Positions 71-63,284 of a DNA stretch of 64,000 nt are shown here, one piece after another. How positions within the stretch are numbered: position 1 is the stretch's first letter; each line of letters begins with the position of its first letter. The translations under genes were made by a program, and so were the position numbers. The stretch spans positions 32,736,001 through 32,800,000 of the forward strand of contig NC_073384.1 of NCBI RefSeq assembly GCF_028641065.1, in the 5' to 3' direction. The stretch is from Leucoraja erinacea. Lineage: Eukaryota. The notes under the pieces were generated by a model. It had not been told where the DNA came from. It did no database searches and saw only the letters and a program-made list of their open reading frames with translations.

Positions 71-949
71 CTAAAACACAGTTCAATGGAAAGATGGTAA
101 AATTAAGTCTCATCCCGAATGGAGAATTGCAATAAGCTAAAGGGTCTAACAATCAGCAATTCTGGATGGACTAGGAACCTTAAACGGAAAAAGTAAAATA
201 TAAATATAGAACATAGAGTACAGTACAGCACACGAGCAGGCCCTTCAGCCCACAATATCTTTGCCGAACACCATACCAAGTTAAACTAATCTGCTCTGCC
301 TGCACACAATCCATATCCCTGAATATCCATGTGCTGATCTAAAAGCCTCTCAAACACCACCACCACCACACCTGGCAGCAGCTGCAAACACCCACCACCT
401 TCTGTGAGCTCTATAAACAGACCTTGCAGCTGACAGCTCTATAAATCCATTAAAAAAATCCCAATGAATGATCTCCCACTTTCTGAGAAGTTTGTAGCTC
501 AAGTCAGAATGGACACTTGAATCCGATGCCTCACTGTCTACCGTCATGAATTACAGAAAATTTAGTGAGTCCCGACCGGAAACATCACCTATCCACATTC
601 ACCAGAAATGCTGCCTGACCTGCGAAGCTACTCCAGCACTTTGTATATTTGTGGTATTATCTGAAATTCACGCATCAGCGAGTTCTTCATGATCCCAGGA
701 AAACCAAAGATAAAATTAAAATACAAACTATTTTGTAAATTTAAGAGGCCAGAACTCTACATGTTTGTTGATTAATGATTACCCACGTGATGGATAACGG
801 ATATAAGATTTGTTACAAATACTTTACGAGATGGGCAAAAGGAATTGTCGAGTTATTAACTCGCAGTACCATGAGGCGGTGTGTGCATCCAAACGCTTGT
901 TATCCAGTTAACTTCGATAAAAAAGTTGTTGCAAATACCCTTTTTACAG

Positions 950-4182: not shown

Positions 4183-4422
<240 letters not shown>

Positions 4423-6107
4423 TTACAAAAATAAAAGTGCCAGAGTAACTCAGCGGGCCAGGCAGCAACTCGAGAGAACATAGACAGGAGATGTTTTGGG
4501 TTTGGGTCAGTCTGAAGGGTCCTGATTCGAAATGACACCTATCCACATTCTCTAGAGATGTGCTTGACCCACTGAGTTACTCAGTCACTTTGTATCGTGC
4601 TATGTTAATAAATTAATTTTAACTATTGAACTTTCTGCCCAACTAAGATTTAAAACGATTATTATTGAACTACAATGTTATATTTAAAAGCACAGCGAAC
4701 CCAAGGACAAAGACACAGCCTGGTCCCGCAGAATGGGCTTCCCACAGCACGTCTGAATATGAATCCTGCTGATCCCACTTCCCGATCCATAGCTCTGTTG
4801 GTTATAGGTTTTAAAGAGCTCACGGTGGACTTTTAAAAAAACGTGAGAGCATTTCTGGCTCCAGTGCCCTTCACACACTGTTTTGGACTCCCAACTTTTG
4901 TAGTGTGAAATAATGTTCGCATGGATCAATACAGCACAGGAACAGCCAAAGGGCCTACACTGCCCGTGCCGAATATGTTGCCAAGATAAACTAAACTCCT
5001 AAGCCTGTGTGTGATCCATATCCCTCCGTTCCTTGCATATCCACGTGTCTATCAAAAACCCCAAATCACCATCCATCACCACAACTGGCAGCGCGTTCCA
5101 ATCACCCACCATCTCTGTGTAAAAAAAAAAAACTTGCCCCGCATGTCTTTGACATGGACAAGTTGGGCTGAAGGGCCTGTTTCTGTGCTGTACGATATGA
5201 CATCTCATTTAAACTTTGCCCCTCACACCCTAAAGCTATGCCCTCTAGTCTTTAACATTTCCACCTGGGTAAAAAAGGTTCTGACTGTTTTCTCAATTCT
5301 TCCCTTACCCTTCTGACAATAATATTACATTTATACTTCCCAGTTATTGAACACCCAACCATGGGAAAATAGGTCAAGAGGGAATCTGGGGTAATTTAGA
5401 AGATCATTGAAATGAATGCACTCTCTTAGCAACAACTTATTTTGGAATTCCAGGGTGCAGGCCATCAGGATAAGGCTTTCTCCTCTGGTAATAACTTCTG
5501 TATTTACTTAAGACATAGGAGGAGGCCATTCAGCTCATCAAGTGTATGCCAGCTCACAGAGCAATCCCATTCCCCCGCACTATATTCCCTATAGCTGGCT
5601 CTGCTTCTTAGATCAGGGGCAGAAACACGTGAAAATATGCAACTGTTTCACAAGATGGCTAGTTCAATTGAAATCTTCAAGATGGAGATTCTTGTTCGGT
5701 AAGAATTGTTATAAAGAGCAGAACAAATGGACTTGAGGTACAGATTAACCACAAGCTACATTAATCTTGAAACAAATGTGGATTAGAATGCCTTGCACGC
5801 AGTCTGAAGGGGGCTCCAAAGACCCAAAACGTTGCATGTTCATTCCCTCAACAGATGCTGCCTGACCTGCCGAGTTCCTCCAACACTTTTGCTCAAGATT
5901 CCAGCATCTGCAGTCTGGAGTCTCCACCTTGGTTCTGTGATTATGTCTCAAGGTGACCACACTTCACAATTTCTCATTAGATACTCCAATGTACATATAA
6001 ATCTTGGATAACTAGGTAAACTGTGTAATATCCAGTCCCAAATTTTTCTATCCACAGACAGCTCTCTGATTCAAAAGCAGTCAACAAGCCCCCATCATGC
6101 TATTTTA

Positions 6108-12531: not shown

Positions 12532-13675
12532 CTAACACACAACATGAAATTAAAATGTGCACATCCAAAATATTTTACAATTCATTCAGTAACTTACCTA
12601 AATGGCAGACTCAGCAAAATAATAATAAGGTAAATATTCACCACTACAAACATTATGTGCATCATTACTGTATTCACAATCATTAGCTTTCTTTCTTATC
12701 ACTGATTGTGTTGTCTCCCATTGCACATGAGAATCAAAGAATACAAACATTTTATTTATTGATTGATACTGCGTGGAAACAAGCCCTTTTGCCCACTGAG
12801 CACGTCAACCACCCATTTATTCTAGTTCTACATTATCCCACTTTTTAAAAATTGTACTGTACCTTTACAGCAGAGAAAAGGGGTCAACTGCTTTTCCTCT
12901 GTACAAGCCTTCTTCCATCTTACTACACCTCATCTTATCCTTCGCTCCATAGATGCTGCCTCACCCGCTGAGTTTCTCGAGCATTTTTATCTACTTTCTC
13001 CTTATCAACATATCTTTCTATCCCTTTCTCGCTATATTCTGCTATTGTTCATCTTTTATTTTGTTTGTGCTATTTGTTGCAGCCACTCAGCTATTCCATA
13101 TTATCAACATACGATTTTCTAACTCCACAAAATTCTGCCAAGTTCAAACCACTATGACTATTCCTCGCCCACCATCCATGTAGCCAGAAAGTCACAGAAA
13201 TGCTGAATTACGAGAAAATATACAAATAGCTCAAAAATTATTTTAATTCCCATTATGAAAATTCTCCATCTATTACAACAATTCTCCCTCCTGCCAAAGG
13301 CAGAATGCCTGACACATTTTCCTCACACCAACTATGTTACTCTATTGCACAACCTAGCCCAACACAATTCAGACAAGAATGATTCACCATCAGCTCCCTC
13401 CCATACATTCCCACTCCTAGTTTGCTCTGGATTCCTTTGTCAGTCTCCCATTTACCACCCTCTAAGATGCTTATGGTAAAAAGCTGCAGAATACTATTAT
13501 ATGAAACAGATGGAGAGTGATAGATTGATTGAAAATGAATAAAAGGGTTAAATTCAACTGGTAAAAGTGTGGTAGAAGAAATAAGGGAAGGGAGTAATCC
13601 AGTTCACAAGGTTCAGAATAAAAGAAATGAAATGAGATGGACTAAGACACCAAGAGTGACAATAGTTTCACATCA

Positions 13676-19590: not shown

Positions 19591-22528
19591 GTTTCTGAAG
19601 GTATGGCTGCTGAAGGTACTGGCTCACTTATCCTTATTGATGATACAATTGCTGATGGTAATAGCATAATGAATTCTGAAGGGTATAGACACATCCTATC
19701 TGCTCAAGTGCAAACAAATGCCTCAAATCTCATTGGCTGGCAGTACATTCTACAACAAGACAATGCCCCCAAACATACTGCTAAAGCTACAAAGGAGTTT
19801 TTCCAAAGCTAAGAAATGGTAAATTCTTGAGTGGCCAAGTCAATCAACCGATTTGAACCCAATTGAGCATGCCTTTTATATGCTGAAGAGAAAACTGAAG
19901 GGGACTAGCCCCCAAAACAAGCATAAGCTAAAGATGGCTGCAATACAGGCCTGGCAGAACATCACCAGAAAAGATACCCAGCAACTGGTGATGCCAAGTC
20001 AAGTCAAGTTTTATTTGTCACATACACACACAAAATATGCAGTGAAATGAAAGTGGCAATGCCTGCGGATTGTGCAAAAAACTACAGAACAGAATAATGT
20101 CCTTGATCGTGATGTCCATGAATCGTAGACTCATTGCATGCAAAGGATATGCAACAAAATACTTTACATGACATTGCTGTGTCCCAAACATTATGGTGCC
20201 ATGAAATGGGGGGGGGAATATGTATAAATACAGCTGTAATTTGTGCATGGCGAAACCAAAATGTATAAAAATGGCCTATATTAAAATCTGACAATGTGCA
20301 CTTTAACCCACGTGTGATTTGTTCTCTTACAAATCTCAAATTGTGGAGTACAGAGGCAAATAAATAAATGATGGGTCTTTGTCCAAAACATTATGGAGGG
20401 CACTATATACAGTATATTATGCACTTTATTCCTTATACCATTTAAGTTCTGCAATACAATATCAGTGCAGACATTGAATACCAAAGCAGTACACATTACC
20501 TCATTTTCCAAGCATGTAAGTCACAAATTTTGTTTATAATATTCACTTAATACTTTGAGGGTGGGAAAGCATGATGAAAAATAGAAAATGTAGATATAAG
20601 CAAGCATTTCACACTTCTTCAAAGGAAAGTCATGTACAAATATATATATTTATTACTATCAATTTATTAATCAGAGCCAGCACCACAATTGAAGATTAAC
20701 AATAGCAACAAAATAGAATATAACTTTTTGAGGTCCAGAAACTAGAATATATTTTGCAAAACTATCTTTAAGTAAGTAATATTAAAGTCCAACACTTCTG
20801 AAGTTTTTATTTGTTCTGCTCTATATGCCAATTCACAAAAATCAGCAAAGCCATCGGGGAAAGTCTTTCCCTATTTGGCACATTCAAGATATTCTCATTC
20901 CAACACCTCTCTTCAACAAAGTTTATTTTTTGCTTCCAGCATTACATTTAATATCTGTGTTTCTACTTGCCTGCCTCTGATGAAGATAATGCAACCAATA
21001 AACAAGTCATTAAACCTGGAGACAAAGAATTACAAATGCTGGTTTACAAAAAAAAGGCACAAAATGCTGGAGTAACTCAACAGGTCAGGCTTCTCCTCTG
21101 GAGAACATGGATAGGTGATGTTTCTGGACTGATACTTCTTCAGACTGCTCTCTAAGTCATTAAAGCAGCCTTCTCTGAGCAGACTATCATCAACATGTAT
21201 TGCATTTGCCTCTCTACTTGGATAGTTGAGTGGCTAATTATCCAACTGAAGATCGTATTATCCAAAAATGAAAATCAAATATAGAAAATGTCCACTTCTA
21301 CTGCGCAGTTTGCTGATGTGTACATGAGTAAAGATGCTGAGGAATGCCACACAGCATCTTTTGATTCCTCAAGTCCTTTGCCAGTTCTTTTTCTTCCTAG
21401 TTTAAGTGCCTTTGCCTCACAAGATGCCACTGCTGCTGAACGCCTACCTTCAAGGTTTCAGGGCTGCCGGCCTGCCTGACTTCCTGCAGCAACAACAAAA
21501 AGTGGACGTCTGATTTGTAAAATGACAGCGCAGTGGACATCTTGGGTTCAGGTCTCGTGTCTATGGTAGTTTGACCAGAGCGGCAGCAGAAACTACCGAA
21601 CCGCCCAGCGAGCTCTGCAAATCAAAACAGCAGATATATGTTTTCATAAGCACGTCAGTTTATCTTTTAAACTGTTTCAATGCCACCTGCAGAACTCCAA
21701 ACATTGTGGTGCCAATGGTCAGCTTTGATGTGCACATGCCAGATATGGCATTACATGCACTCTGTATCCCCAACAGGTCTCCACAGGATTGGTTCAAAAT
21801 CAACCAGGCGCAGGGTCCCATTCAAACATCCAGAATAGTGCATTTGGTAGAACTTTCAGTCATTGAGTGTTAAATGCGCGCTGCCAGTCAGGCAGGATAA
21901 AGAAATGAAATAGGGTTGGGCGCAGGATGAGCAAAAATAAGCTCTGCTAAACAAACTGCTTATTTATAATATATAGTACCGTAGTTGTCCCTGTCTACAA
22001 ATAATCTAGTATTAACTAATCTGTTTGGCTAACATGCAAAACAAACTTGTCAATGTACACACGACAATAATAAATGTAAACCTAAATAAGTAATGTTTTA
22101 TTTGCTGTGTAAACTCTAAACGTTGGGTCACTTGTCAGTCACAAAGGTTACACAGATCACCTATCATGGACTCTGCCACATCTACTTAAAATCTTATTAT
22201 AAAATAAATCATTCCAGATATTTAGTTAATGAGATAATTGCAGTATCTACAAAATTGATTCAAAGGCACAACCTTCCATATGTTCTCACACACTCACAAT
22301 TGGCCCTGAAAACAGGTTTTCATCATCTTAGAATGTGTTAAATCCCATAACCCTGTGCGCTTTTCCATATATTTAATTTAGCTTATCTGAATATTATTCA
22401 TTTTGACAAAATGATTGTTCTTCTTATCTGCTACCTACAGGAAAATGTTTCTCCCATGCTTTAGCTCTCTTTGGTCAGCTTCAAACCTAATTATATATTC
22501 ATAGTTCATGTCAAATAGTTTGCTTATA

Positions 22529-25609: not shown

Positions 25610-26997
25610 TATTTATAACTCTTAATAGCTTAAATTACCCCAAAACAAATCTAGACTGGCAATCTTGTACTGAAACATTGCAAGCTGATTTAAAAATAAT
25701 TCTGGTATTGCCTGTCCAAGCTCTTTCAATGTAATGTTTGGAAGATGGATCACAATCAATGTCCCTCTGGTGGTTCTTCCTCCAGATTTACAGATGTCCT
25801 ACCACGGCTGGTATTTTTTTGACAGACTTCAATGTTACAAATGGTAGATGCAGTGGGAATCATAACTAGACAATTGATTTTTGGAAACATTATAAAGAGT
25901 ATATTTATAGGAGCAGAAATATTTAAATAAAGAACACAATCTGCTAGAGTAACTTAAATGGGTCAGGCAGCATTTCTGGAGAAAACGGATAGGTGGTATA
26001 TATATATGGGACGAGATCCATCTTCAGACAGAGATAATCTTCATCCAGTCAGGTTTGTGCTAATGATGATCACTGTATCCCACATAGATGATTAATCTTG
26101 TCCATGTCAAATTATTTGAAAGGTTACATGTTCAAATACTTCAGGAAAAATTTGGAGCTTTGCATCACGTGAAGAAAATATCTTAAAGACTTACTCCCTT
26201 AAAATAAACCCATTTTCTGGATACAGGACCAGTCCTGAAAAAAAAAACAGAGTGCTGGAGTAACTCAGCGGGACAGGCAGCATCTCTGGAGAGGCATGAT
26301 TAGGTGACGTTTTGGATTGGGACCCTTCCTCAGATTAATTGTAGTAGGGGTGTGGGGGAAGAAAGCTGGAAGAGCTTGTCTTTTGAATGTCCATTGGCTT
26401 CAGTCGATATAGGCTGTGGGCCGAGGAGCTTTTTTGTGCAGTTTCATGACCCAACTCATGGAACTACATGAAATGTTCACATTGTGTAAAAATATTATAT
26501 AAATCATCCTGAAACTCGTCAAGAACAAAACTTGTACATCTTTTATTAAATTAGAGAAAAAACTGAAATTTTTTGGGTATTTTTAGTCCAATCAAAGCAC
26601 GTTTAACATTGAGACGGACGCCAGTTGGCCAATCACGCGCTTTGTTTCAGGCTAGCTAGGCAGGGAGCACACATCATGGCTGAGAGTGCTTCTACTGATG
26701 CCTGTTTTACTGGAGATTCTGATGAAGGTTCTTTGTTGTTCTGTGGAATACATGTTGTGGAAACTTGCAGCAGGGTAATTGAATTTAGTGAGAAAAGCAT
26801 TAAGAAGTCTGAAGAATATGCAGCTAAGTGGATGGACGAGGAAGAAAGTCTTGAAAGCAAAGTCGCTGCTAAGGTGCTGCAACACAAAGAGGACAGCCAA
26901 TTTGTGAAACCAGTCAAACTTTGTGAATCAACTGGAACTGAAAGGTAAGATCTAAAGTCTGAATTTAAGAAAATTAATCTGTATAATTGTGCCCTTT

Positions 26998-29966: not shown

Positions 29967-30703
29967 GGGTGATTTCACTAAAGGTCACTGGAGCGTAGAT
30001 CCGCACCCACGTGACCAAAATTCTCAAGTGGAGGACACTCGAGGGTTCGGTACATGTTAGTGGATGGGAAAAAACGCATTTTCCCACCCGTTAAAAACAT
30101 AGAAAACGGCGAGGTTGTGAGCTGCAATTTACTGTGCCAGTCGGGGTGACCGTGAGGCACAGCTACCTAGATTTACAGGGAAAAAAAAAGATAGCAAGTA
30201 AGGTAAATTCAAGAGGGAACTGAAGGTGCCAAACCGGCGGAAATGAACAGCCGACATTTGCCGTGGATATTTACAGGTCCAAAATATCGGGAATTATCGC
30301 GTTTGCTCGCTGAATTTCATCAAAAGTAAGGCATTATTAACTTACTTTTGATAAATTCAGCGAGCAAACGCGATAATTCCCGATATTTTGGACCTGTAAA
30401 TATCCACGGCAAATGTCGGCTGTTCATTTCCGCCGGTTTGGCACCTTCAGTTCCCTCTTGAATTTACCTTACTTGCTATCTTTTTTTTCCCCTGTAAATC
30501 TAGGTAGCTGTGCCTCACGGTCACCCCGACTGGCACAGTAAATTGCAGCTCACAACCTCGCCGTTTTCTATGTTTTTAACGGGTGGGAAAATACGTTTTT
30601 TCCCATCCACTAACATGTACCGAACCCTCGAGTGTCCTCCACTTGAGAATTTTGGTCACGTGGGTGCGGATCTACGCTCCAGTGACCTTTAGTGAAATCA
30701 CCC
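29967..30703. mobile_element. Foldback/palindromic MITE, 737 bp, about 364-bp arms, 10-nt loop, TATA TSD
   Basis: GGGTGATTTCACTAAAGGTCACTGG...CCAGTGACCTTTAGTGAAATCACCC; loop gcattattaa at 30331-30340; mirror 60-aa ORFs 29978-30160(-) and 30510-30692(+) differ by one residue. Confidence 0.9.
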
Positions 30704-31054
30704 TATACATTCAAAATGTCTGGAACAGTTTCCACAAATTCCCAGTCCAAAGGGACATGGGTGGAAAATTGTCGGTAGTGAATTCGACATTGACTGCGGT
30801 GATCTGCCTCCAGCCCCAAGCACCTTGCTAGAATTAACATAGTTCATGCAAGAAAACAAACTGTGAGAAATGAAGTGCAGTGAAAGGAAGATGCTCATGT
30901 CAACAACATGGTGTGCCATGTACAGATTTATGTAAGTGTGTTGACTGCAGAAACTCTATTACTCCAAAAGACTTAGAATCTGATGAAGAATATTCAGATG
31001 AAGATCAGATGTAATGTAAACAAATAAATTGGGGAAATAAATGATTAGCACACT

Positions 31055-32171: not shown

Positions 32172-32357
32172 AAATCTGCCTTCAACACCATAATTCCAAC
32201 TCCAAACTCCTGGACCTAGGAATCAGCAGTCTACTTGGCCACTGGACCCTTGACGTTCTGACCCCCAGATATGCAACAAAACATCCTCACCAAAACTCCC
32301 TATACACTCACGATTGTATGATTAAATTTGTCTCTAACTCAACTTACAAGTTTACCT

Positions 32358-32820
32358 TAGGTACACAAAAATGCTGGAGAAACTCAGCGGGTGCAGCAGC
32401 ATCTATGGAGCAAAGGAAATAGGCAACGTTTCGGGACAAAACCCTTCTTCAGACTGATGGGGGGTGGGGGGCGGGAGAAGAAAGGAAAAAGGAGGAGGAG
32501 GAGCCCAAGGGCTGAGGGAGAGATAGGAAGGGGAGGAGACAGCAAGGGCTAACAAAATTGGGAGAATTCAATGTTCATGCCCCCAGGATGCAGACTCCCC
32601 AAGCGGAATATGAGGTGCTGTTCCTCCAATTTCCGGTGGTGCTCGCTCTGGCCATGGAGGAGACCCAGGACAGAGAGGTCGGATATGGAATGGGAGGGGG
32701 AGTTGAAGTGCTGAGCCACCGGGAGGTCAGGTTGGTTAATGTGGACCGAGTGTTCGGCGAAACGATTGCCAAGCCTCCGCTTGGTCTCACCGATGTAGAT
32801 CAGCTGACATCTAGAGCAGC
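32358..32820 (-). mobile_element. Penelope-like retroelement 3' fragment: GIY-YIG endonuclease C-half plus 3' pLTR with hammerhead motif
   Basis: Minus strand translates CSRCQLIYIGETKRRLGNRFAEH...PVAQHFN...KLEEQHLIFRLGSLHPGGMNIEF (CxxC-YIG-R-EH pattern), followed by CTGAAGA-AGGG..CCC-GAAACGTT and the conserved tail shared with the short repeats. Confidence 0.88.
32421..32455 (-). ncRNA. Minimal type I hammerhead ribozyme motif (Penelope pLTR)
   Basis: agu-CUGAAGA-a-GGG(uuuugu)CCC-GAAA-CGUU-gccu: intact core boxes, palindromic AACGUU in place of helix III, weak stem I. Confidence 0.55.
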
Positions 32821-33789
32821 TAATGGTCTGAACTCAAATAATGACGAGATGGAGTACAGGAAGGACACAGAGGACTCAGTGACATTAAATCAAAATAACA
32901 ACCTTTCCCTCAATGTCAGAAAAAAAAAACAAGGAGCTAGTTATCGACTTCAGGAAACAGGGTGGTGTGCACCCTACAGTTAACATCAATGATACTGAAG
33001 TGCAGATGAGTCAAAAGCTTCAGGTTCTTAGGTGCAAATATCACCAACAATTTGTCCTGGGCAATCACATTGACCCAACTCTTACCAATTTCTGGAGAAG
33101 TACTATGGAAAGCATCCAAACATTGTGCATCACAACTAGGTCTGGCAACTGCTCTGTCCAAGACCGCAAGAAATAGAAGAGAGTTGAGGGTGTAGCCCAG
33201 TCCATCACACAAACCAACTTCTCCTCACCCCAACTATACTTCACAATGCCTCAGGATGGAATTTCTATAATCAGAGGGTGGCGAATGTGCAGAATTCATT
33301 GCCAGAGGCGGCTGTGGAGGCCAAATCAATAGATATTTTTAAGGCAGAGATTGACATATTCTTGATTAGTAAGGAAATCAGGGGTTACGGGGCAAAGGCG
33401 GGAAAATGGGGTTGAGAGGGTAAGATAGATCAGCCATGTTTGAATGGCGGAGTAGACTTGATTGGTCAAAGGCCTAATTCTATTCCTAGAACTTAGCAGC
33501 GAACACATTCATGGACTACTTACTCCCTCATTCCCTCTCCTGTCGGGCAGAAGATACAATAGCTTGCCCTCAAGATTCACATGTATTGTCAAGGATGGAA
33601 TCAGTAGAAAGGAAGGCAAATGTAATGTTAACATTCATTTCAAGAAGTCTAGAATATAAAAGCAGGGATGTAATGCTGAGGTTCTAAAAGGCACTGGTCA
33701 AACCGCATTTGGAGCATTGTGAGCAGTATTGGGCACCATATCCGAGGAGGGATGTGCTGGCGTTGGAGAGGGTCCAGAGGAGGTCCAGA

Positions 33790-39529: not shown

Positions 39530-39944
39530 GCTTTTATAAATATTGCCATTTTAAAAATCGGTAATTTTTTAGTTGAAGCCAGTTGCGATGCTAGTTGAAG
39601 GTGGTTGCCGGAGGTTGCAGGTAGTTGAAGGTAAGACCTCCCTAGTGGAATAAAACTGGGTGAAAAAAAGATCTTACCTTCCACTACCTGCAACCTCCGG
39701 CAACCACCTTCAACTAGCATCGCAACTGGCTTAACTAAAAAATCACCAATTTTTAAAACGGCAACCTATTTTTAGTCACGGCCGGTTTTGAATTTTTTTA
39801 AATAATCGGCGGAACATAAAAGAAGTGGAGACGACTTTTGACCATTAAGGAGACTGACAAAAACCTCCGGGAACCGCACGGAAACCTTGGGTGGGCGCAA
39901 AGTCTCCAGAGGTTTCCGTTCAGGTTTCCTAAGTGGGACGGGCA
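39530..39944. mobile_element. Truncated PIF/Harbinger-type palindromic MITE
   Basis: Right end aagtgggacgggca followed by TTA, similar to the 40343-41037 termini; internal inverted repeat about 39543-39767. Left end missing. Confidence 0.65.
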
Positions 39945-40342
39945 TTAGATACAAGGAAGCGGAGATGAAATTTCTACTGTTGAACCACCCGGTTCTCTGC
40001 CATATCTATTCATTTTTTCACCTCTTAGACATAAGGAGGCAAAGAATAAATATCTACCTTAGAACCATCCAAATGAGATTAATCAGTTCCAGGATTTCAA
40101 ATGGTACAGTTGTCTTTACTTACTAGGCTTGCAAGGACATAGAAAGGCATTGGGAAGAATTTCAATTTCAATCAGAGGTGATTCACTGGAAACATCATCT
40201 ACATCACCAGTCTACAGATATTTCTGACATTACCATCATGTTTCTAAACTCAAGACAGTATAGGATCAGGCTGCTTAATCTCTCCTCATACAACAAATTC
40301 ACTGACTCAAGAGTCAATCTATTTGACCTTCTATTGCACTAA

Positions 40343-41037
40343 AGGGCCTGTCCCACTTGCATGTCCTTGGCACGCTAATTACGCGACCTCGTGGTCGCGT
40401 TCAGGTGCGACGGTCCCGCGAAGGTCGCGCGCGATTTTATTCGACCGCACAGCTGTCTGGAGCGCGTGACATCATTTGAAGATGGACACAAAATGCTGGA
40501 GTGACTCAGCGGGACCGGCAGCATCTCTGGAGAGAACGAATGGGTGATGTTTCGTGTCGAGACTCTTCTTCAGTCTGAAAGAAGGGTCTTGACCCAAAAC
40601 ATCACCCATTGCTTCTCTCCAGAGATGCTGCCGGTCCCGCTGAGTTACTCCTGCATTTTGTGTCCATCTTCAATTTTCTTGGCCCCTCTCTGGGATTAGA
40701 AGTGGGGGCGGATCCGGACCGCAACGGCCGTGAGCCCCAGGCCGAGTTTGGCGATCGTTTGCCTGCTTCTGCTGCTGTTGAAGGTGAGGCGTTGCGTCAC
40801 GCCAGGGTCTTGGGACTGTCCCATTTTGGCCGTCAGTTCCGCGACAGGCCGTTGGCGCGCGAAGATTTTGTTTGCTACAAAAATTTAAGAGCCCCGCGCG
40901 ATGTCGCGCACATCTCCATACCGCTCGGCGCTTCTCAGTGGGACCGGCCCGCGCGGCCATACGATGCCCATGCGCCTCAATGTAACCACGAGGTCGCGTA
41001 ATTTGCGTGCCAAGGACACGTAAGTGGGACAGGCCCT
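40343..41037. mobile_element. PIF/Harbinger MITE containing a Penelope-derived palindrome
   Basis: TIR AGGGCCTGTCCCACTT...AAGTGGGACAGGCCCT with TAA TSD on both sides and extended subterminal inverted similarity. Confidence 0.88.
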
Positions 41038-44000
41038 TAACTCTACTGTACAAATATCCTTCTTTAGATGGGGAGATCACATCAGTACATAATATTGCAG
41101 AAGCAGTCTCAACAGGAGTTAGAAATATATATTTCCTCTTGTTCTTAAATTCTCTTGCAGTTCAAGCCCAAGTACTCTTTGCCTTCCAGTACACTTTTTG
41201 TATTAACTAATATTGTGATTTATGTACAAGAATATCCAGATCCCTCTGAACAGTAACCCCTTTCAATCTCTCAGCACTGACAAAATCCAGTGCAGGGTTG
41301 GGGCAGCTTGAAGGAATGGAGATTGATGTCTTGAAGAAGATTTAGGAAACTTTAAATAGGTTTGGAATTTATCTTGAAAATTCAACAATGTGATTTTTTT
41401 AGATATCAGTGTATTTGAATCTTGATTTCTCAAGTCAGTGCATCTCCAGTAAATTACTACTGTACTAAATATATGACTTTATTAAATAACTTACCTTCCT
41501 CATTGTATAACAAACTAGAAGGGCAGGACATTATACTACCCAAATCATTTTGCCCAAAAAGATAGCGATGGTTACAAAATGGCATATTCTGATTCACAAC
41601 CATTAAGCAAGATTAAAGATTTTACATGCAGGATTTATGTTTACTGTATTCATTTAGCATAATTTTGTAGTCTTCGTCAATTAGCCGAAAGAACAAGTTA
41701 TATCTTTAAACATGTAAGAGTGGTTTCAAAACTTTATCCAGGAAGTTCAATACTTTATAACACTCCAAATCCTCCAATTGCCCAGCCCTGCTACAAACAG
41801 TTCTGAATCAAGACTGAACAATAAGCTTCTTTGAAAACAATCATCCTTGCATTCCACAAGAAAGGAAACGGACACACTGTTGACGCACACAAGAGTGCAC
41901 TTAAACACCAGTAGACTATAAATAGAACACATTTTAGCGAAATATATGCTGGGCATAGGTCAACTGCCTCAAAACCTTGGCAATTCTGTCCCTATTTGCA
42001 CAGCATTTAAAAAAAAAAATGTAAAAACTGAAAAAGGAGAACAACAAGTACATTTTCTGACAGGAAAGAAACAGGAGGTAGTGAATTCAAATTAACTTTC
42101 ACAAACGGTAGAAACATCTTTTATGAACACCTCATTGGGTGTGTGAGAGGATCGAACAGGAAGCACCTTTCCACCACTAATACAAATTAATGCACTATTT
42201 ACTTCCTAACACCTAACATTTCTCTGACTTGCATATAAAATTAAGGATACTTGACAGAGTTGAATTGGAAAAAATTGTATTCATGTCAAAATGAAATAAA
42301 ATGCATTCATACTATACCTTTGATGTAATGAAATAAAGTAAATAATTTAATTTACACTGTTTTACACTGAGTCATGGAATGAGGTATTAGATCCAATGAC
42401 ATAGGACATAGATTTTAAGATTGAACTTAAAACGAGAAAGGAGCAGACAGGGGTTAAGGGAAGATATCAATCTTAGTTACAAGTGGAATAAAGATCACAT
42501 GAAGTAGACTGGCCAAAAGCATGACCATGAATATAGCTGAGTATATTTATATCTGCAGTGATACTTTGAAGAAAAATCAGAGAAAAGTGAGAAGAATTGA
42601 AGTGGAGTTTGAATCACATGACAGGAAGTTGCTATGGAGTGGGCATTTCGGGAAATAAATTAAAAATAAATTTTACTGAGAAACGTGAAGATTGTTTTGA
42701 AACTAATATGTCAGTGACCAAACATGGAGTTTACTAAATAATTATTAGAGTACCATAAAACAGCAGAACAGAATACTTATATCTCTGCTAATACAGACAT
42801 GAATCTAAAACAGAAAAAAAACTCATTGATCGTAATGTCCAGCATCATGCAAGCTGTGGAAGAAATCATGTTCTGAGGATTTGCATTACAACAATGTTAG
42901 AGAAAGTAAATTACATCACTTTCCAGGAGTGTTTTTTACTGAACGTATAAAGGAGAAAGTTGTACTTTTCCCAGAAATGTATCCTTCATATTCAGAAGTT
43001 CACAATTTATCAAAAATCACACTATCTTTATCTCACTAAAGAAGTGCATCAATTGTTCTAGTGCCTTATGATTCTCTTTTGGTAAAACAAAAGGGAACCA
43101 AGGGAAAAGGGCCCCCAAAAATCTTCAATGAACAACTGTTGAATCATTCAGCATCCATTCAGAAATCGGAGGTGCAAAGGGACTTGTTTACACAAGTGGG
43201 AGAGTCTAGGACTAGAGGCCATAGTCTCAGAATAAAAGGACGTACCTTTAGAAAGGAGGTGAAGAGGAATTTATTTTGTCAGAGTGGCGAATCTGTGGAA
43301 TTCATTGTTACAGACGGCTGTGAGGGCGCCAATGGATATTTTTAAGGCGGAGATTGACAGATTCTTGATTAGTACGAGTGTCAGGGGTTATGGGGCAAAG
43401 GCAAGAGAGCGGGATTGAGAGGGAAAGATAGATCAGCCATGATTGAATGGCGGAGTAGACTTTATGGGCCGAATGGCCTTAATCTGCTCCGAGAACTTAT
43501 GAAGGCAAGTAGTGCACCAATACGCAGCCTTGCTCTCATAAAAAAAATGTTCATGTAGATTTAACTTAAAATATGACACATTGACAATCAACTACAGATA
43601 TTCACACATATATTTCCTCCAGAAAATAGATCTTGCAAATTAAATATTCTGTCTGAAATCTTCAAAGCCCCCGGCTGGCGATGGCGATTGTCCCAGGGCC
43701 ATTAAATTAGACGCCGGGTGGTGCGAGGTCGCACACCGGGTCTTGGTGTTAAAGCCCCCGGCGTACGCTCGCAGAGTCCCGCGGCCATTCCAAGCCGCGC
43801 GGGGCAGTGATGTAGGCCCCGCTCCAGGAGCTATTAAATATTCTGTCTGAAATCTTAACTTCCCTGCTGTACACAGATGATAACAGGGAAAGTTCCAAGA
43901 TTAGAAATGTCTTATGCTCTCTCACAGACATCTGTTATAAATATTCTAGATAAACAAACCACTGGAACAAAAAAGAACCAGAGAATATTTCAGATACAGA

Positions 44001-44070
44001 GCTGTCAAACGTTATTTAATGCAAGAAAGTCATGAATTAGAGGAGCAAATCATGATCAATTCATACATGT

Positions 44071-44258
44071 TTAAACAAGAACTGCAGATGCTGGGAAAAT
44101 CGAAGGTAGACAAAAATGCTGGAGAAACTCAGCGGATGAGGCAGCATCTATGGAGTGAAGGAGGGTCTGAAGAAAGGTCTCGACCCGAAACGTCACCTAT
44201 TCCTTCACTCCGCAGATGCTGCCTCACCCGCTGAGCTTCTCCAGCATTTTTGTCTACC
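44071..44258 (+). mobile_element. Short palindromic Penelope-derived insert with 16-bp TSD
   Basis: Inverted arms (ggtagacaaaaatgctggagaaactcagcgg... / ...ccgctgagcttctccagcatttttgtctacc) flanked by a perfect repeat atcaattcatacatgt (44055-44070, 44259-44274). Confidence 0.85.
44163..44198 (+). ncRNA. Minimal type I hammerhead ribozyme motif
   Basis: GGGU-CUGAAGA-aa-GGU(CUCG)ACC-c-GAAA-C-GUC-ACCU: stem I GGGU/ACCU, both core boxes intact, GUC triplet at 44192-44194; base of stem II mismatched. Confidence 0.6.
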
Positions 44259-44467
44259 ATCAATTCATACATGTGCCTCAGGCATGCACTATCTATAGTG
44301 AAGCCTAAATAAGATTGCCAAGATCTCCATTAAGAGCCCTTGGAAAAGTTGAGTAACTTGTGAAACAAAAGATAAATTACTTTCTAGCGTTAATATGATT
44401 TAAATGAATGATAAGAAATACTTCTGAGTTTTTAACCCTGACTTCCTTCTTTATTTGTAATTCATTA

Positions 44468-44707
44468 CAGGTCATCCCCAGCTTACAGACACTCAAAGTA
44501 TGTATAGGCCCAACAAACAACTACGCATTTGGGAAACACGCGGGATGAATTTGCCAGCTGCTGCATGCATCTTCTGCTGTGTGCAAACAACACAGTAGAA
44601 GATGCATGCAGCAGCTGCCAAATGTGGCCAAATTTCCAACTGGCGAACTGTCAGGGTTACAAACAGTTCACAGGAATGTAATGCTGCTGTAACCAAGGGC
44701 GGTCCTG
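44468..44707. mobile_element. Small degenerate Tigger-like palindromic MITE
   Basis: TA-CAGGTCATCCCC ... GGGCGGTCCTG-TA termini and central hairpin gctgctgcatgcatcttctgctgtgt / acacagtagaagatgcatgcagcagc. Confidence 0.5.
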
Positions 44708-45319
44708 TACTATTATTCATGTTGTACACACAAACAGCATTAAAGGAGCTTACTGCTATTGAAATGCTTGCTTTATCTCCTTTTGTTAATATTTGAGCAC
44801 AATAAAAAAAAATGCAAAAGATTTGTTTACATGCTAAAAATATTCAGGCAGAATCCATGAGGGGGAAACAGAGAAAACTTTTCAGAAATTACCTTTAACT
44901 AGCAAACGGAAAAGTACGAAATTGAACAAGTGTTAAATTATGGGGGAAACGTGGTGACTGAGTAGTGATGCACTCAGAGGTGCTGTTGGCTGAGAGAGCG
45001 TGGGGAGAGCCTGTGATTAGGTGATTAACCTACGATTTGTCTGGAGAATTAAAAGGAGATAAATGAGAACAGCTGAGAGAGAAAAAAAAATAGAAAATAA
45101 AACACTGCAATTGCCAGAAATCTGAAAAATACTGGAGATTCCCAGCAGATCATGCAGCATCTGCGGAAAGACAAAAGCTGAATTAACGTTATACATTGAT
45201 TTTCCATCAGAACTCACTGGATCCGATACACCTACTAAAAGTGCTGATTAGTTAAATTAATGAATTGTTAAGTTACACGCCCAGTGGGAAGATGAAATGT
45301 TCTACCTTAAGTTTTGGTT

Positions 45320-45610
45320 GGGCTTTGTTGAAGAAACTAAATGTAGATTGGGTGACGACTTTGCAGACCACGGCCATTCAGTCCATAATGGTGACCAGGG
45401 ACTCCAGTCACTTTGTTCATCTCATCACTACTCTGACCCCTCTGACTTTAGACCCTGCTGTCACAATGCCCAATATAAACTTGAGGAACACATCCCATCT
45501 TCCCACCAAGCCACTGACTTGAAACATTGACTGTTACTCTTTCCACAGATGTTGCTCGACTTGCTGAACATTTCTGGCATTTTCGTTGTTGTATTTCCAA
45601 CATCCTGAGG
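45320..45610 (+). mobile_element. Old Penelope GIY-YIG fragment
   Basis: ORF 45297-45530 contains FVEETKCRLGDDFADH and YKLEEH, degenerate versions of YIGETKRRLGNRFAEH and RKLEEQH seen in 32560-32818. Confidence 0.55.
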
Positions 45611-45982
45611 TTTTCCTTTCATTTTCAATGGATGTAAGAGTTCGACTGGTGCAACTGCCATTTATAGACAGCTGAGTGAGTGTGTAAATACAAGGAACTG
45701 CAGATGCTGGAATCTTGAGCAAAACACAGAGTGCTGGAGTAACTCAGCGGATCAGGCAGCATCTGCAGGGGGAATGGACATGCGCTGTTTCGGGTTGGGT
45801 TCCCTCTTCAGGGTGTGAAGAAGGTTCCTGACCTGAAATGTCATCTGTCTATTCTCTCCATAGATGCTGCCTAACCCACTGAAATCCTCCAGAACTTTAT
45901 GTTTTGAACAAGAGTGTACACTCCATTCAACATTTACAAAACTATTTACAAGCCATTAACTCTAAAGTCATAAAACACCTCA

Positions 45983-46696
<714 letters not shown>

Positions 46697-47823: not shown

Positions 47824-50410
47824 CTGTTGAGATGAGAAAAGAATAAAGTTTGGGCAGTTTACAAAGATTGTTTAAATGAGGAATAAAATGATATGATGCA
47901 TTGAGAAACACGACTGCGAGAATTTGAAGAATATAAAAATGTTTGAATTTTTATTTGTAGCAACTATCAACAGATTCAGACTGAATTGAAATCTGCTTTT
48001 TAATAGACTTTACAAAAAACAGTAAAAGAATGTTCAAACGTTATCCTACTTTAATGATAATGGATGCCCGCTGCATTACGCAAACTGAAGTTAAGTGAAC
48101 AGAGATGGCAAAGAAAAACAATAGAAGGTTAGCAATAGTGAGATAAAAACATTTTGATACTTTTTTTTCAGGTAAGTCAGCTTTACTTTTCATATTAACA
48201 ACATTAGGCATTTCAGATGTCAGGTATTTATTTGCTAGGACATCATGACCATGGGAGTAAAAATATAGAAGTAAAACCAGAACTGCAAGTATCCCTCCTG
48301 ATTATGGAATAGCAGCTAAGAAGCATCTCGCAAACCCTGTAAACATACATAAACAAGCAGTCTATTATTTTAGGGACATATTTTCCACTGTCATTCTGAT
48401 TTTTCGTGCACTTTTATTTTCATGTAATTGGTCTGAGAGGTTTTGCCTTTCTGGGCTTCACATGCTATTCTACAACTTTGTGCACTGTTCCACCCCGGTC
48501 ACTCCTCCTTTTCCCGGCTTCCATCAGGCAGAAGGTATAGAAGCTTGAAAACACACACCACTAGACACCAGAGCAGTCAGTATCTTCCAATTTCGGTTAA
48601 CAGGCTTCAAAATGGTCCGTCCATAAGTTAGGGGATTGTCTGATCCTCAGCTACCCCATTGCAAACATTGGACTTTGTCTCCGGAACGGTTGCCCTAGAA
48701 AATCAGAGAACTATATTCTGCACTCTGTATTTTCCCCTTTGCTCAACCTATTGTTGAGTTTGGCTTGATTGTAGTTATGTACAGTGTTATCTGATTTGAT
48801 TGGATAGCATGCAAAACAACGCTTTTCACTGTACCTCGGTACACCTGACAATAATAAACGTAAACTTAAAAAATCAGCTCTGGGGCTTCTGGGGCTGTTT
48901 ACATTCTATGTTAAGAGTTAGATGAAATGGTTAGCAGTATACTTTGAGGAAGCCTAGCTCTGAGAAGAGCACCAAGACCCTGTGAACTGACATAAAAGGT
49001 TAAAAGGTCAAGTATGATGTGAAGAAATTTGAGGTTAATCAATTTGGTTGGAAATTTTTTTAAATGGAGTACAGTTTAAAATATAACATTTAAATATTGG
49101 TACGAAGAAGGATTTTCAGTGTCCTTGCAAATGGAGAAACTGAAACTTAAGATGCATATATTTTGATCAATTGGGAAAGCAAATGGAATGCTGACTTTTA
49201 CTGTAAAGAAATTGGCAAGATTCGGAAGCCTTGCTGCAATCACAAAGAGCTTTGACAAGATTACACTTGGAAGTGACATCTGCTTTAGTTCACTCCAAGG
49301 GAAAAAAGAGGTGCAGTCAACAAAAGCTCACTCAATTAACTCCTGACATGAAGGCTTTGTCTAATGATAACAGTTTGTGGAAGATGGGCCATTGCTCTTG
49401 CAGTTAAATACTGGAAGTTGATCTCATTGAATCAGATAAACCTATGAAAAGGTTAACATAAAATTCTGGAGTAACTCAGCGAGATAGGCAGCATCTCTGG
49501 AGAGAAGGAATAGGTGACGTTTCAGATCTTGACACGACCCGAAACATCACCCATTCCTTCTCGCCAAAGATGCTGCCTGTCCCGCTGAGTTACTCCAGCA
49601 TTTTGTGTCTATCTTCGATTTAAACCAGCATCTACAGTTCTTTCCTACACAACCAATGAAAAGCTTAAACAGTTGGATTCTGAAGGGCCTGCTTCCCTAA
49701 CTGGAAATCTTAAAATCGATCAGAATAAAGCCCAGGTGATTTAGAGCTGAGGGGAAAATAAATTTCTTAGCTCAGAAGATTGAGAGTTTGTGGAATTCTC
49801 TACCCATCAGTACATTAGATATTCATATGTTGAATGCTGCTGAAGTAGATACTTGGGCTCAAAGGAAATTAAGAGATAAAGATGTTGGGTGGAAAAATAG
49901 AGGCTGAAGATCTGTCATGATCTTACTTAAAAGATAAAAATGCTCAAGATGTTGTTGCTGTTGTTACTCCTGCTCTTACTTCTTTGGAATCAGCAATTAA
50001 ATTACAATAATTTTTAAAATGTTTTAAGCGATTAAATTACAATAATTAAAAAAATGTTTTTCCTTGATGAATCATGATCAACAAACTCACTAAGAGTCCT
50101 TTAGAAGATGCAACATGTTATGGTGCTGGATAGAGTGTACGTGGTCATTCAAAAGGCATTGAAGGGGTACTTATACAAGCACGATTAGGGTTGTGAAATC
50201 AGAGGAAATGTTAGACGGGTAAAATCAGTTTAAGTGGATGGATATTCTTCATGAGGTTTGGCTCAGCTATCTCCTCTGGATTGATTTCTACCAAATCATG
50301 CTAAATAATATATAGAAATACATGCATTTCACATTCTGGAACATTAGCACTCCATGCATTAAGTCATTGACAGTCAGAGTAGTACAGTGCAAAATAATTC
50401 CTGTACATAC

Positions 50411-57361: not shown

Positions 57362-57924
57362 TAGCAATGCAAGCCATTCTCATATAAAACTCAACGAAAA
57401 GCATTTCCATCACTCCCATATTCAAAGGTAGACAAAAATGCTGGAGAAACTCAGCGGGTAAGGCAGCATCTATGGAACGAAGCAACAGGTGATGTTTCAG
57501 GTCGAGTCTTCAGGTCTGAAGAAGGGTCTCAACCCAAAATGTCACCTATTCCTTCGTTCCATAGATGCTGCCTCACCCGCTGAGTTTCTCCAGCATTTTT
57601 GACTACCTTCTATTTTTCCCAGCATCTGCAGTTCTTTCTTAAACTCTTCCATATTTAACATCTTCCTATCATAATAATCCAGAAAGTAAAAACAAAAATC
57701 ACAAATACCAATTCCTTTGATGTTTGGCAAAATTGAATTTAGATTTCTAAATAAAGAGTATAAAGGACAATAAAGTTAATTTCAAAATAGTCGTTCAGAA
57801 TATTTCTCAGCATCTAAGCTGGAAAAATGTTTGTTGCTTATTAAATAACTCAGCTTTCCAGAAGTGTGTAGTATTTCAATGAAGCTAAAGTCTTTTAGGT
57901 CCAAAAGCAAATAAAAATATTGAT

Positions 57925-58597: not shown

Positions 58598-60059
58598 TCA
58601 TCAATCACCCGTCTTGTAAGAATAAACAAATTGCCACGAAACTTTCCTGAAATCAGAACAAAAAGTTGAAATGGATCAGAGATTCAGATTTGATGAGAAA
58701 CAAGATCAAGGAGCACTGGGCTTGCTCAAAACACAAGATGCTGGTGAAACTCAGCAGGTCAGGCAGCAACTGTGGAGGGAATGGATAGGTGATCGGTCAG
58801 GAACGTTCTTCAGCCTCTATACCATGCCCAACCAGGCCCACCAGCCCACCAGATAAAATTTGTCCTACAGATTCATTTACAGCTCTGCTGTTCAACCTGT
58901 GCCAGAGCCATCCTGTGGAGCAAAATTAACCACATGCAGTGATGAGGTTTCAGCCAGCTGATCCTAAAGTCCCACCCCAATGGCATTTTAATGGTCACTG
59001 CCTTCAAACCCCTTTGAACTGTTGTTAAATATATGTGCTAGTCAGAGATTTTTAAATGTTACATGTACTGATAATTAATATATCAGCCAAAATAGTTTAA
59101 AAAATGAATTTGCTTAAATCAAATGAGGGAAAACATTTTCACACAGAGGCTGGTGAACGTATATAAAACGAGCTGTCAGAAGAAGCTGTGGATGCGGGCA
59201 CAGTAAAAGACATTTAGACTGGTACATGGAAAGGAAATGTTTAGAGAGATATGGGGTAAGTGCAGGAAAATGGGATTAGCTTAGATGGATCATAGACAAG
59301 TTGGGCTGAAGGGCTTGCATCCTGGCTGTATTACTATGGTAGTAGTAACAAAGATATTAAAAAAAGTGAACTAAGCATGAACTAATATTAGTGGCTCCAT
59401 TCAGATTAATGGGGCTGCAGTTCCTATGGTACCCACCCTTACGCATCTGATGCCTTAACTGAGTAGGTCTGTGCTCCTGGACACGTTTGTACTATGTGAG
59501 TTTAGATGCACTGACAACTAACTTCAGTGGTACAGTGTGCAGGGGTGGAATCAGGGACAAGCTGACCTAAGAGGAAGACAGTGCTGGTGCGCATTTTGAC
59601 CCATTATTCTGTGAGACGTTGTTTCTTTTGGAATATAATAACACACTAACACAGAACTACAAATAACCAAACCGTCAATGTAATATATTGAGATATTAAA
59701 TAATGCAATTCACTGAAGATCTTGAATTAGAATAATATTATTTTTTGACATAATCATAATAAAGAAAGTAAACATATAAAACACTTTAATCTCACATGCA
59801 AAGTGTACAGATATACACTTTTAACACAATGGGGCATGCACCAATCAACAGAACAATGCATCTACAAATTAACAGAACAGACAGATACAAATTAATAAAA
59901 TCAAACTGCAACAAGCATGCCAATGAAGAAATAAAATTGAGAAAATGAACAAATGAGTACAGAAGGAGGGACTGTGCAATTAAATGAAAAAACAGCAACC
60001 ACCATTACAAACACTAATTAATCATCTGGACATTCAATTCTTAGAGATGGAACATTCGC

Positions 60060-60280: not shown

Positions 60281-61519
60281 TCCAGAAACGAATTGGAGAC
60301 TCAAACAGCTGTAGATGCTGGAATCTGGAGTAAAAAACAAACTGTTGGAGGAAATTAGGTCGCATCTTAGACAGGTGACGTTTCGGGTCTAGACCCTTCC
60401 TCTGGACTTAAGAGTGGAGGGGAGTTAGTATGAAGAGGTGAAGGGGTTGGGACGAGATCTGGCATATGGCTGAATCCAGCAGAGGAATTGGTTGGATTGG
60501 TGGATGGAGATAATTGCCCTTAGAATTTAATATCACTTTTGTTAGCCCCATGATTACATTTAGTTTATAAGTGATAGGAGCAGAATTAGGCCATTTGACC
60601 CATCAAGTCTACGCCACCTTTCAATCGCGGCTCATTTATTTTTCCCTCTTAACCCCATTCTCCTGCCTTCTCCCCATAACCCCTGGCAGCCATACTAATC
60701 AAGAATCTATCAAATTCTGCCGTTAAAATATCCATTGAAGTCCTCCACAGTCTTCTGTGGAGGCCAAGAATATCACTGGAAAGCAATCTAATCCTGTATC
60801 TAATCCAGACAAATATATAAAAGACCTGCAATTCTTGTGCCAGAATAATGCATGCACTTTGGCAAGTGGTGCCAGACCTTTACATGGGCTATGTTTTTGA
60901 AAGAAATACAAATTTGAACTAGAATCATTTAATAGTTTGAGTACATTTAAACATAGGGCTAAGAATATCAACCAAAAGCAATTTATAGTCATAAAGGTAA
61001 ACATTTAAAAACCTAAAGAAAGATTGGACTCCAAATAATGATCCAACAAGTTTATTAGCATATAATAAAGTTACACTGCATGTTAAGTATGTATGTGAGT
61101 ATGTAAGTAAGTAAGTAAGTTTATTGGCCAAGTATTCACATACAAGGAATTTGCCTTGGTGCCATTGTGTTGACACCACTGTGACTACATCTCGACTAAC
61201 AGCTAGTGTCTGGAAGCGTTAGTAATAAATGGTGACTGTATGGTAAAAACCAGACTAGATTATAGATCCAAGTGGGGTGTAACATATGTGTGTTAGTATT
61301 AGGTCGAGCAGATCTACACCAACCTCTTACCAAGGAATAAATTTAGAATTAGAATAGTTTCAGGACCGTTGAATTATTCTTCAACACAATGGCAAATTTT
61401 CAATATATCCTGTTGCTCAATCAATATTATAGCCACATACAGTATACCTAGATAGTTTCTTAATTTGTTAATAAAACCTGACCTCCATGAAAATGGCAGC
61501 ATGAACCTAAATTTAATTA

Positions 61520-61663
<144 letters not shown>

Positions 61664-62510
61664 CTAAGGGATACATTTTAGAAAAAAATTGTAATCTATG
61701 AATCCAGTTGCACAACACAGACATTTATTAACAGATTCTAATGTTACTAGCATTTTACTCAAAATCCCAAATTTAGAATGTTAACACCCATCACAATCAA
61801 GCTACACACTTTCTAAACCAGGAAATCTGATTATAGAAACAAGGAACTGCAGATGCTGGTTTACAAAAAATGGGGCATGGCATGCTGGAGTAACTCAGGA
61901 GGTCGTGCTGGAGTAACACGGGAGGTAAGCAACAGCACACATTACATATGCCCAGATTTGAAATATTGTGTTCAGTTTTGGTCACTCTGCTGGAGAAAGG
62001 ATGTCATTGTTAGAAGGAGTGCAGAGAGAATTTATGGGGAGGTTGCCAGAACTCAAGGCCTGAGCTATAAAAAATAAGTTGGACAGGTGGCTGTGGGGTG
62101 TATAAAATCATGAGGGGAATGGATATGGTGAATGCACAGATTCTTTTACCCAGAATAAGGGAATCAAGAAGCGGAGGGCATGGGTTTAAGGCAAGAGGAA
62201 AATGATTTAATAGGAACCTGAGGGGCGACACAAAGGTAGTTGGTAAATGGAATGCGGTGCTAGAGGAGGTATTATAACAGCATTTAAAAGACATTTGGAA
62301 AGTTACATGGATAGGGAAGGTTGAGATATATGGACGAAGTGTGGGCAAATGGAATTAGCTCTGATGGGGCATCTTGGTCAGCATGGATGAGTTGGGCAAA
62401 AGAGCCTGTTTCTGTGCTGTGTGCCTCTATGACCACTTCTGAGATATTCTGAAAGGGATAGCTATTGGAGATTCATCACCACAGTTAGGACGCGTCCATG
62501 ATAACCTTAC

Positions 62511-62636: not shown

Positions 62637-63284
62637 CTGTTGACAGCAAATAGAAAGGTAGTTGACAATTAACCTGTAAATATACCCAACAATGAATAAA
62701 CGCACAATATAACAATTAAGTAATACTTCAAACAACATTTTGTTAATAAATTATCCAATCTTTTCTGGTATTCCAAGCTGTATATTTTTGATTGGAAGTA
62801 CATTTAATTCCAACAAAATAAATCCCTTAGATACATCATTACAGATGTGGTAAGCCACTTGTCTCGTCCAAGTTTACCCATGCAGAAAGATCACATTCTC
62901 CCCATTGCAAATTTAGTTTGAAGCACAAAGTGTTGGAGAAACTCAGTGGGTCAAGCAGCATCTGTGGAAAGAATGGACAAATAACATTTCGAATCGGGAC
63001 TCTTCTTCAGACTTGAAGGGCCCCGCTCCAAAATATCAGTTGTCCATTCCCTCCCCAAACACTGCCTGACCCTCCGAGTTCTTCCACCACTTTGCGTTTT
63101 TCTCAGATTCTAGCATCTGCAATCTTTTGCATCAGCAAATCTGGCTCTGCTATAGATATGTTACATGTTACATGCAAGTGCAATGCTTCAGTTCAAATAA
63201 ATGCTGTCCGAATGCATAATTTCAGCAGGAGTTAATTCAACTGACATTATTAATCTGAGATGTCATAGTACCCTTACAGGACTT

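Follow-up and report, generated by a model that had tools for sequence, protein, structure and literature searches.

Penelope hammerheads are said to cleave as dimers, a result credited to Lunse in 2017. Cervera and De la Pena (2014, PMC4209133) describe, for pLTRs of metazoan Penelope-like elements, a minimal type I hammerhead with the same core boxes, the same extra base between positions 9 and 10.1, G10.1-C11.1 and a palindromic 15.2-16.2 segment as in the repeat family of the skate Leucoraja erinacea studied here, and likewise report thousands of solo motifs and opposite-strand pairs 100-700 bp apart. The skate family differs in a stem II of only 4 bp, a helix I of only 2 bp and a size of about one million arms by extrapolation; cartilaginous fish are not among the animals named in the sections of that paper covered here. 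Inverted-pLTR insertions (Arkhipova 2013, PMC3846280; Craig 2021, PMC8557442) resemble the skate inserts in their head-to-head inverted 5'-truncated copy, target duplication, partial tandems and 30-40 bp tail at one end only. In the skate, however, both arms are usually pLTR alone, and the pairing of two end types (A and B) and a stop at the hammerhead edge were counted.

The closest biochemical parallel is PAc, the Poseidon element of green anole (Frangieh 2024, PMC11167929). Its protein nicks each of the two target strands and extends both, starting in vitro at two internal sites that bracket the tail, with no strand difference in start site; hammerhead cleavage is not needed, and the ribozyme cleaves with help of the protein. 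The skate family shares with PAc the two internal start sites bracketing the tail, in the 5' part of the next unit, the GAAA-CG-UC end of the hammerhead, a cleavage likely dispensable for insertion and the absence of RNA ends at the cut. It departs from it in that the start codon of PAc lies inside stem II, whereas the skate element has its first ATG ~36 nt past the tail and a Neptune/Nematis linker. Non-LTR retrozymes, which are head-to-tail tandems with a complete hammerhead in each unit (PMC7229834; bioRxiv 10.64898/2026.07.22.740005), are also pLTR-derived, carry a type I hammerhead and are mobilised, by inference, by Penelope proteins; the inserts of the window are solos or inverted pairs, not tandems.

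The skate family is thus a known class of element with a known ribozyme motif. We consider it probable that its inserts are the Penelope terminal repeat, each likely a one-off product of the element's own insertion, made on RNA that was likely not cut by the hammerhead. Among the papers listed in searches of the open-access literature, none was found to describe the A/B pairing, the edge stop or the 66-nt array treated below. The formation of Penelope inverted repeats and pLTRs and the role of the hammerhead are presented as open questions in PMC11167929 and PMC8557442, and a young, near-identical family offers a test bed for them.

Copies of the repeat in SOS1

The window, a 64-kb stretch of L. 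erinacea DNA analysed at its full length, carries a SOS1-like gene on its minus strand, as the sequence-only reading had supposed (E 1e-136 to human SOS1; PH, RasGEF_N and RasGEF domains). The reading frame with the SOS1 PH-domain exon is at 45983..46696 (minus strand), and the focal insert, with its flanks at 44055-44274, is situated in the 31-kb intron behind it. Its tailed arm (44069..44162, minus strand) is of the end type termed A and runs from pLTR position 37 to the end of the tail, without the hammerhead core. The untailed arm (44165..44258, plus strand), of end type B, begins at the first base of the hammerhead, and two G residues at 44163..44164, which are not element sequence, form the inversion junction. 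Within the insert proper (44071-44258) the arms are 91% complementary across 65 nt. The exact 16-bp repeat reported earlier at 44055/44259 is present (44055..44070 on the left, 44259..44274 on the right), but the 2-3 bases that close the left repeat fit the element end as well, which leaves a target duplication of 13-14 bp plus this overlap. The minimal type I hammerhead motif of the plus arm (44165..44198) is antisense to SOS1 and has its predicted cut after 44194; A replaces G at 44175, by which pair 10.1-11.1 is broken and G10.1-C11.1 is gone.

The junction of the focal insert recurs in three other loci among the best 30 of 3,728 candidate genome matches, these 30 being chosen by similarity. 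An empty site was sought in contigs from DNA runs of other organism labels and not found. Contigs under labels C and D enter the insert by 35-52 nt, those under E by only 22-24 nt; since the insert is common to at least two other labels, it is not recent. At a distance of 200 bp, at 43639-43855, the window contains a GC-rich 194-bp insertion with a 22-bp duplication, which has no counterpart in the contigs of the four DNA runs compared and is young or lineage-specific.

All 13 repeat loci named in the sequence-only reading were recovered by a profile search. The profile, built from arms of the window itself, gave 26 arms at 19 loci (7 inverted pairs and 12 solos) and no match in the reversed window used as control; the six loci not listed before start at 12927, 32351, 45125, 45515, 58729 and 61843. 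Besides the focal insert, head-to-head pairs with one tail are found at 4405..4601 and 45693..45904 (both older), at 49447..49650 (core truncated) and at 57422..57635, where a reading of the cores showed both to be broken. The duplications that had been proposed around the 49.5-kb and 21.1-kb copies were located at 49439/49651, where it is imperfect, and at 21004/21154 (11 bp). An untailed head-to-head pair at 40470..40674, the 40478 palindrome, is a passenger within a larger repeat. This repeat of 450-720 bp, at 40340-41050, has four more copies with 85-87% identity in 1.6 Mb of sampled genome. The seventh pair, at 62922..63123, has a minus arm that passes the hammerhead descriptor (loop UG) and folds with its mirror arm.

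Solo arms on the plus strand are present at 567..659, 5802..5914 (tailed), 12927..12998 (without core) and 45515..45584 (short and decayed). Those on the minus strand include a tailed arm starting from the hammerhead edge (21026..21145), a pLTR arm behind a GIY-YIG fragment that is in SOS1 sense and passes the hammerhead descriptor (32351..32454), a short decayed arm (45125..45170) and a tailed arm without core (61843..61936). In four others the profile match was combined with a reading of the core, which is disrupted at 25925..26029, has a decayed GAAA box at 26228..26334, a deletion at 58729..58814 and a mutated CUGA box in the tailed arm at 60307..60404.

The earlier suggestion that intact copies lie in the sense of SOS1 pre-mRNA holds in so far as two copies pass the descriptor, at 32452 and 63010, both on the minus strand; they are 30 kb apart, however, and the 63010 copy is locked in its own hairpin with the mirror arm. 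A strand bias was not apparent either: 14 window arms are sense and 9 antisense to SOS1, small numbers with no depletion of sense copies. The case for an effect of hammerhead copies on SOS1 pre-mRNA is weak, and the motifs are likely inert after landing. As the parts were already known, the locus itself is ordinary and probably inert.

Several other repeats were seen in the window. A near-perfect inverted repeat at 29963-30707 has 355-nt arms that are 99% complementary around a 35-nt spacer, like a young MITE, and smaller inverted repeats lie at 39543-39764 and 44549-44623. In the long SOS1 intron, 23200-25400 and 28400-29550 form a GC-rich patchwork of short direct and inverted repeats. Frames at 33900-36100 and 17200-17630 resemble what we take to be pieces of retrotransposon gag and protease.

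The parent element and its hammerhead

The repeats are the terminal 95-131 nt, counted from the hammerhead edge, of a 3.95-kb Penelope-like element. A Penelope origin had been proposed from the letters of the window alone, and full-length Penelope carrying this pLTR was indeed found in the genome. Two loci with full-length units were fetched (L241 and L242), both of a subfamily other than the focal one. In L241 a 3,955-bp unit with RT and GIY-YIG frames stands in tandem, the neighbours being 99.6% identical over 2,256 bp, and in both loci a 3.95-kb unit lies behind a truncated copy, in partial tandems that form pLTRs. The order of the unit is endonuclease, stop, pyrimidine-rich stretch, hammerhead, 64 nt, end B, tail, end A, short leader and next ORF. 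An arm thus follows on from the endonuclease end on its upstream side and runs into the 5' leader and ORF of the next unit downstream, where the first ATG of the full-length unit is found ~36 nt past the tail. The focal subfamily is slightly unlike the fetched copies; its arms were also seen joined to an ORF or endonuclease end.

A frame of 755 aa gave Pfam matches to RVT_1 (E 1e-6, 29.1 bits with a cut-off of 29.6) and to GIY-YIG (E 0.006, below cut-off), and its translation contains DKG and YIDD motifs; the fetched copy carries one stop upstream. Copies with the long frame number at least 150 and are 89-100% identical in the N-terminal part of the RT. Between RT and endonuclease a C-X4-C-X2-C linker was read in translations of L061-L070 and L241. 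A CX2-5CXXC linker is a mark of the Neptune and Nematis clades (PMC8557442), and by its predicted linker motif the element is of Neptune/Nematis type. The window itself contains the C-terminal GIY-YIG-like frame of a 5'-truncated Penelope copy at 32549..32833 (minus strand; Pfam E 0.037, below cut-off), for which at least 150 relatives with at least 90% identity were present among 96,503 candidates; longer copies continue into an RT. The hammerhead motif had been placed directly 3' of this fragment; the fragment is there, but the motif lies 95 nt behind the stop.

Two further features of the units deserve mention. At L241:3960-4030 and in all subfamily consensus lines, AGAUGCUG could pair with a CAGCA copy, of which there are two, placed ahead of end B and of end A respectively. 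Both copies are kept in 7 of 7 clusters and could set the two start sites. In two of the 128 short solos (r43 in L095 and r247 in L176) the hammerhead is immediately preceded, in sense, by the 5' leader and ORF start; this permuted order points to a template jump or to a unit with an internal deletion.

At the level of the family the motif is a minimal type I hammerhead, in agreement with the sequence-only reading, with CUGANGA and GAAA boxes, a U-H site and G10.1-C11.1, the latter present in 204 of 285 arms. It has an extra base after A9, a 4-bp stem II, a palindromic ACGU and a 2-bp helix I. Helix III had been described as reduced to nothing, whereas A15.1-U16.1 pairs in 258 of 285 arms, around the palindromic ACGU. 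Nor does ggU precede the CUGA box: the element has U-C-A-G-U, with A at -1 (87 of 103 long copies) and C at -2 (86 of 103), and the G residues at 44163-44164 are junction bases of the focal insert. Base pairs of the stems change one-sidedly within the genome, from U-A to U-G at two pairs (53 and 56 of 285 arms), and two-sided changes did not rise above noise; relative to the anole PAc ribozyme as printed in PMC11167929, a comparison made by eye, stems I and II show two-sided changes.

The hammerhead descriptor gave 58 matches in the genome sample, all within arms, and none in the reversed control. An Rfam scan of the window returned no hammerhead at E<=10 and only hairpin-driven microRNA matches below cut-off. 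Of the 339 sampled arms spanning the core, some 13-17% (45 or 58 matches) still satisfy the descriptor. Decay at CpG, which had been proposed as the route of inactivation, was borne out by 18-35% mismatch at CpG positions and 5-10% elsewhere. Selection on the core after insertion was considered and dropped; non-CpG mismatch is 5-6% there and 8-10% downstream, a difference confounded by subfamily mixing and alignment.

Ends of the copies and routes of insertion

Abundance was estimated from 160 stretches of 10 kb over the larger contigs (1.6 Mb in total), in which 739 arms cover 67 kb or 4.2% of the bases. Besides the million arms, extrapolation gives ~160,000 hairpins genome-wide, and at ~4% of the genome the family is a likely source of false microRNA and ribozyme annotations. 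The sampled arms comprise 440 solos, 240 arms in 120 pairs and 51 in tandem, mostly partial units. A pair was defined by a gap of <40 nt between its arms, and long inverted arms therefore fall among the solos. The palindromes recognised earlier are real but not tail-to-tail: the arms meet at their 5' ends, in 120 pairs against 6 of the 3'-3' kind, an arrangement termed head-to-head (PMC3846280). Duplications of 9-18 bp flank 32 of the 120 pairs, the two arms sharing one target duplication, and 17 of 127 tailed solos also have a duplication (controls 0-1 in both cases). There are 96 different junction combinations in the 120 pairs, which means that most palindromes were made separately; some were re-amplified as passengers in larger repeats, such as the 40478 copy.

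The 3' ends of the arms are bimodal, with the tailed site A and the untailed site B ~35 nt apart. Among the 86 of 120 pairs that could be classified (34 being unclassified), 69 are AB, 13 BB and 4 AA. Under independence 42.5 AB pairs are expected (p ~4e-9), and in the youngest group 23 of 26 are AB. The mirror arm might be made by fold-back or self-priming, in which one cDNA, or an antisense RNA (PMC3846280), turns back at short inverted matches and copies itself. Such a route was argued from junction palindromes in PMC3846280, and in the skate many junctions are on the self-complementary stem II or ACGU, while a subfamily marker is common to both arms in 32 of 35 pairs (53% expected). We nevertheless regard self-priming as unlikely. 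End B stands by itself in 199 of 440 solos, so it serves as an independent start site. Partner arms show no special closeness within their family (median percentile 0.28, with 25 of 79 exceeding the median), and the anole protein extends both strands (PMC11167929).

If RNA cut by the hammerhead were the template, 5' ends would be expected at position 31, the predicted cut. Only 4 of 406 young arms end there and 12 within 2 nt, with no pile-up; the observed ends gather 30 nt upstream instead. This bears on the earlier proposal of non-autonomous, retrozyme-like units, whose transcripts would be cut as dimers by their hammerhead, form circles and return to the genome by means of the Penelope protein. 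A hammerhead with palindromic helix III that a part of the core-covering arms retain would suit such a cycle, as would the origin of animal retrozymes from pLTRs (bioRxiv 2026.07.22.740005) and the existence of a tandem derivative, the 66-nt array, elsewhere in the genome. However, the units span the cut site and neither begin nor end at it, the diversity of junctions already contradicts the proposal, and the window holds no tandems of complete motifs. In palindromes the mirror arm pairs with the motif, and only 8 of 58 descriptor matches are inside them. We hold this proposal to be very improbable indeed.

The position where 5' ends gather is the edge of the hammerhead. In the youngest family, 42 young solos extend as far as the edge, and 24 of these terminate no more than 6 nt from it; in the two youngest families none of 28 paired arms passes it by more than 3 nt. 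Upstream extension was judged with an anchored test; a test against a large library had a null of up to ~24 nt. Exact genome-wide counts, which cover one young subfamily, show that at the first G of the hammerhead 3,869 of 18,893 copies lack the next base (20.5% depart from the element). One base before it 1,788 of 20,681 depart (8.6%), and one step after it 2,393 of 15,024 (15.9%). With an assumed mutation rate the modelled stop at this G is 22-25%, and with the 7% rate measured nearby (8 of 108) a hand calculation gives ~19%. About a fifth to a quarter of young copies thus go no further than the hammerhead's first base, which lies 30 nt upstream of the cut. The ends as a whole spread over ~12 nt, and at least 43% of paired arms stop inside the motif.

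The edge sequence UCAGUC resembles what we take to be the initiator consensus, and it resembles a splice acceptor too. A G that could stem from a copied cap is slightly in excess (G to pyrimidine 0.66 against 0.43 from base composition; G to A/T 0.47 against 0.38), a slight and ambiguous signal with other possible sources. With the same origin of the inserts, the edge stop could be a polymerase stall or a protein-bound boundary on a long RNA rather than a transcription start. The spread of the ends with many in stem II, the C-rich tract just upstream in the youngest subfamily and the small size of the cap-like G excess point in this direction. Against it, the edge is identical in subfamilies with different upstream sequence, and the sharpest stop is past stem II, not at its entry; on balance a stall is somewhat unlikely. 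It is very improbable that short copies derive from spliced RNA, with the edge acting as a 3' splice site in the manner of Drosophila virilis Penelope. A pyrimidine tract and CAG do precede the motif in all subfamilies, and in D. virilis the intron extends up to helix I (PMC4209133, PMC2377424). Yet two join patterns with the nearest donor gave 2 and 0 genome matches, none being the exact spliced form, the ORF end is upstream in sense in 0 of 128 short solos, and the principal stop, at G, falls one base short of the acceptor.

In RNA reads of four runs from two studies, of related or identical species, no place was seen where many molecules begin or end. This test of RNA ends is weak since 70-94% of the reads, from oligo-dT and single-cell libraries, derive from passenger copies. 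Strand bias in the single-cell reads was set aside as evidence, as internal priming on A-runs can explain it.

In view of the above, the reading that we favour is insertion by the Penelope machinery itself. By analogy with anole Poseidon, both target strands would be nicked 9-18 bp apart and each would prime reverse transcription internally. The counts suggest that the two strands use the different start sites A and B in a coordinated way, and that cDNAs as a rule extend no further than the first base of the hammerhead; the likely reason is that the most frequent form of the template RNA starts at this point, with the initiator-like UCAGUC. The two cDNAs would then be joined by short matches to give a palindrome, or one would be lost to leave a solo; read-through RNA would yield long copies and tandems. 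After landing the motifs would decay at CpG. Two-strand extension from two internal sites (PMC11167929) accounts for ends A and B, for head-to-head pairs in one duplication and for the missing cut-site signal. The preference of A for B and the edge stop are additions that we infer from the counts; the A/B pairing is not predicted by PAc, which showed no strand difference in start site (PMC11167929). More tentatively, the stubs may be a read-out of the Penelope cycle, in which RNA starts at the hammerhead, a dimer primes A on one strand and B on the other, and run-off cDNAs fail to jump onward, like retroviral strong-stop DNA. For a reconstituted reaction three counted predictions follow: the start sites should be used in pairs, synthesis should stop at the hammerhead edge, and no product should end at the cut.

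A 66-nt tandem array outside the window

Elsewhere in the genome, and absent from the 64-kb window, a 66-nt unit occurs in tandem, the closest approach to a retrozyme that was seen. The unit starts at the GAAA box and finishes at end B; its junction is constant, and the heads that precede it belong to different subfamilies. The unit includes the cut triplet and start site B, the 3' half of the ribozyme, but lacks the CUGA box and stem II; it therefore differs from retrozymes (PMC7229834; bioRxiv 2026.07.22.740005) in having no complete motif per unit. Arrays of 2-8 units were mapped at L090:3560-3830, L166:7230-7500, L214:5560-5850 and 9690-10050, and L216:6740-7080, and further ones are in L007, L008, L017, L045, L064 and L065.

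A role of the array as a cis ribozyme was considered and is not favoured by predicted folding. In one copy helix III had a pair probability of 0.0 and the constrained fold was 5.3 kcal/mol above the minimum; the constraint failed to take in a second copy, and a third copy has no second site. By default the array counts as an ordinary minisatellite that the element or recombination has spread. That it is instead a parasite made of the substrate half and start site B, carried by the Penelope machinery and cut by a complete motif in cis or trans, appears quite improbable. The array junction has 18,764 exact matches in the genome, which are clustered among the first 100 listed: one contig holds 74 of them inside a span of 2.3 Mb, and another holds 16 in its final 7 Mb.
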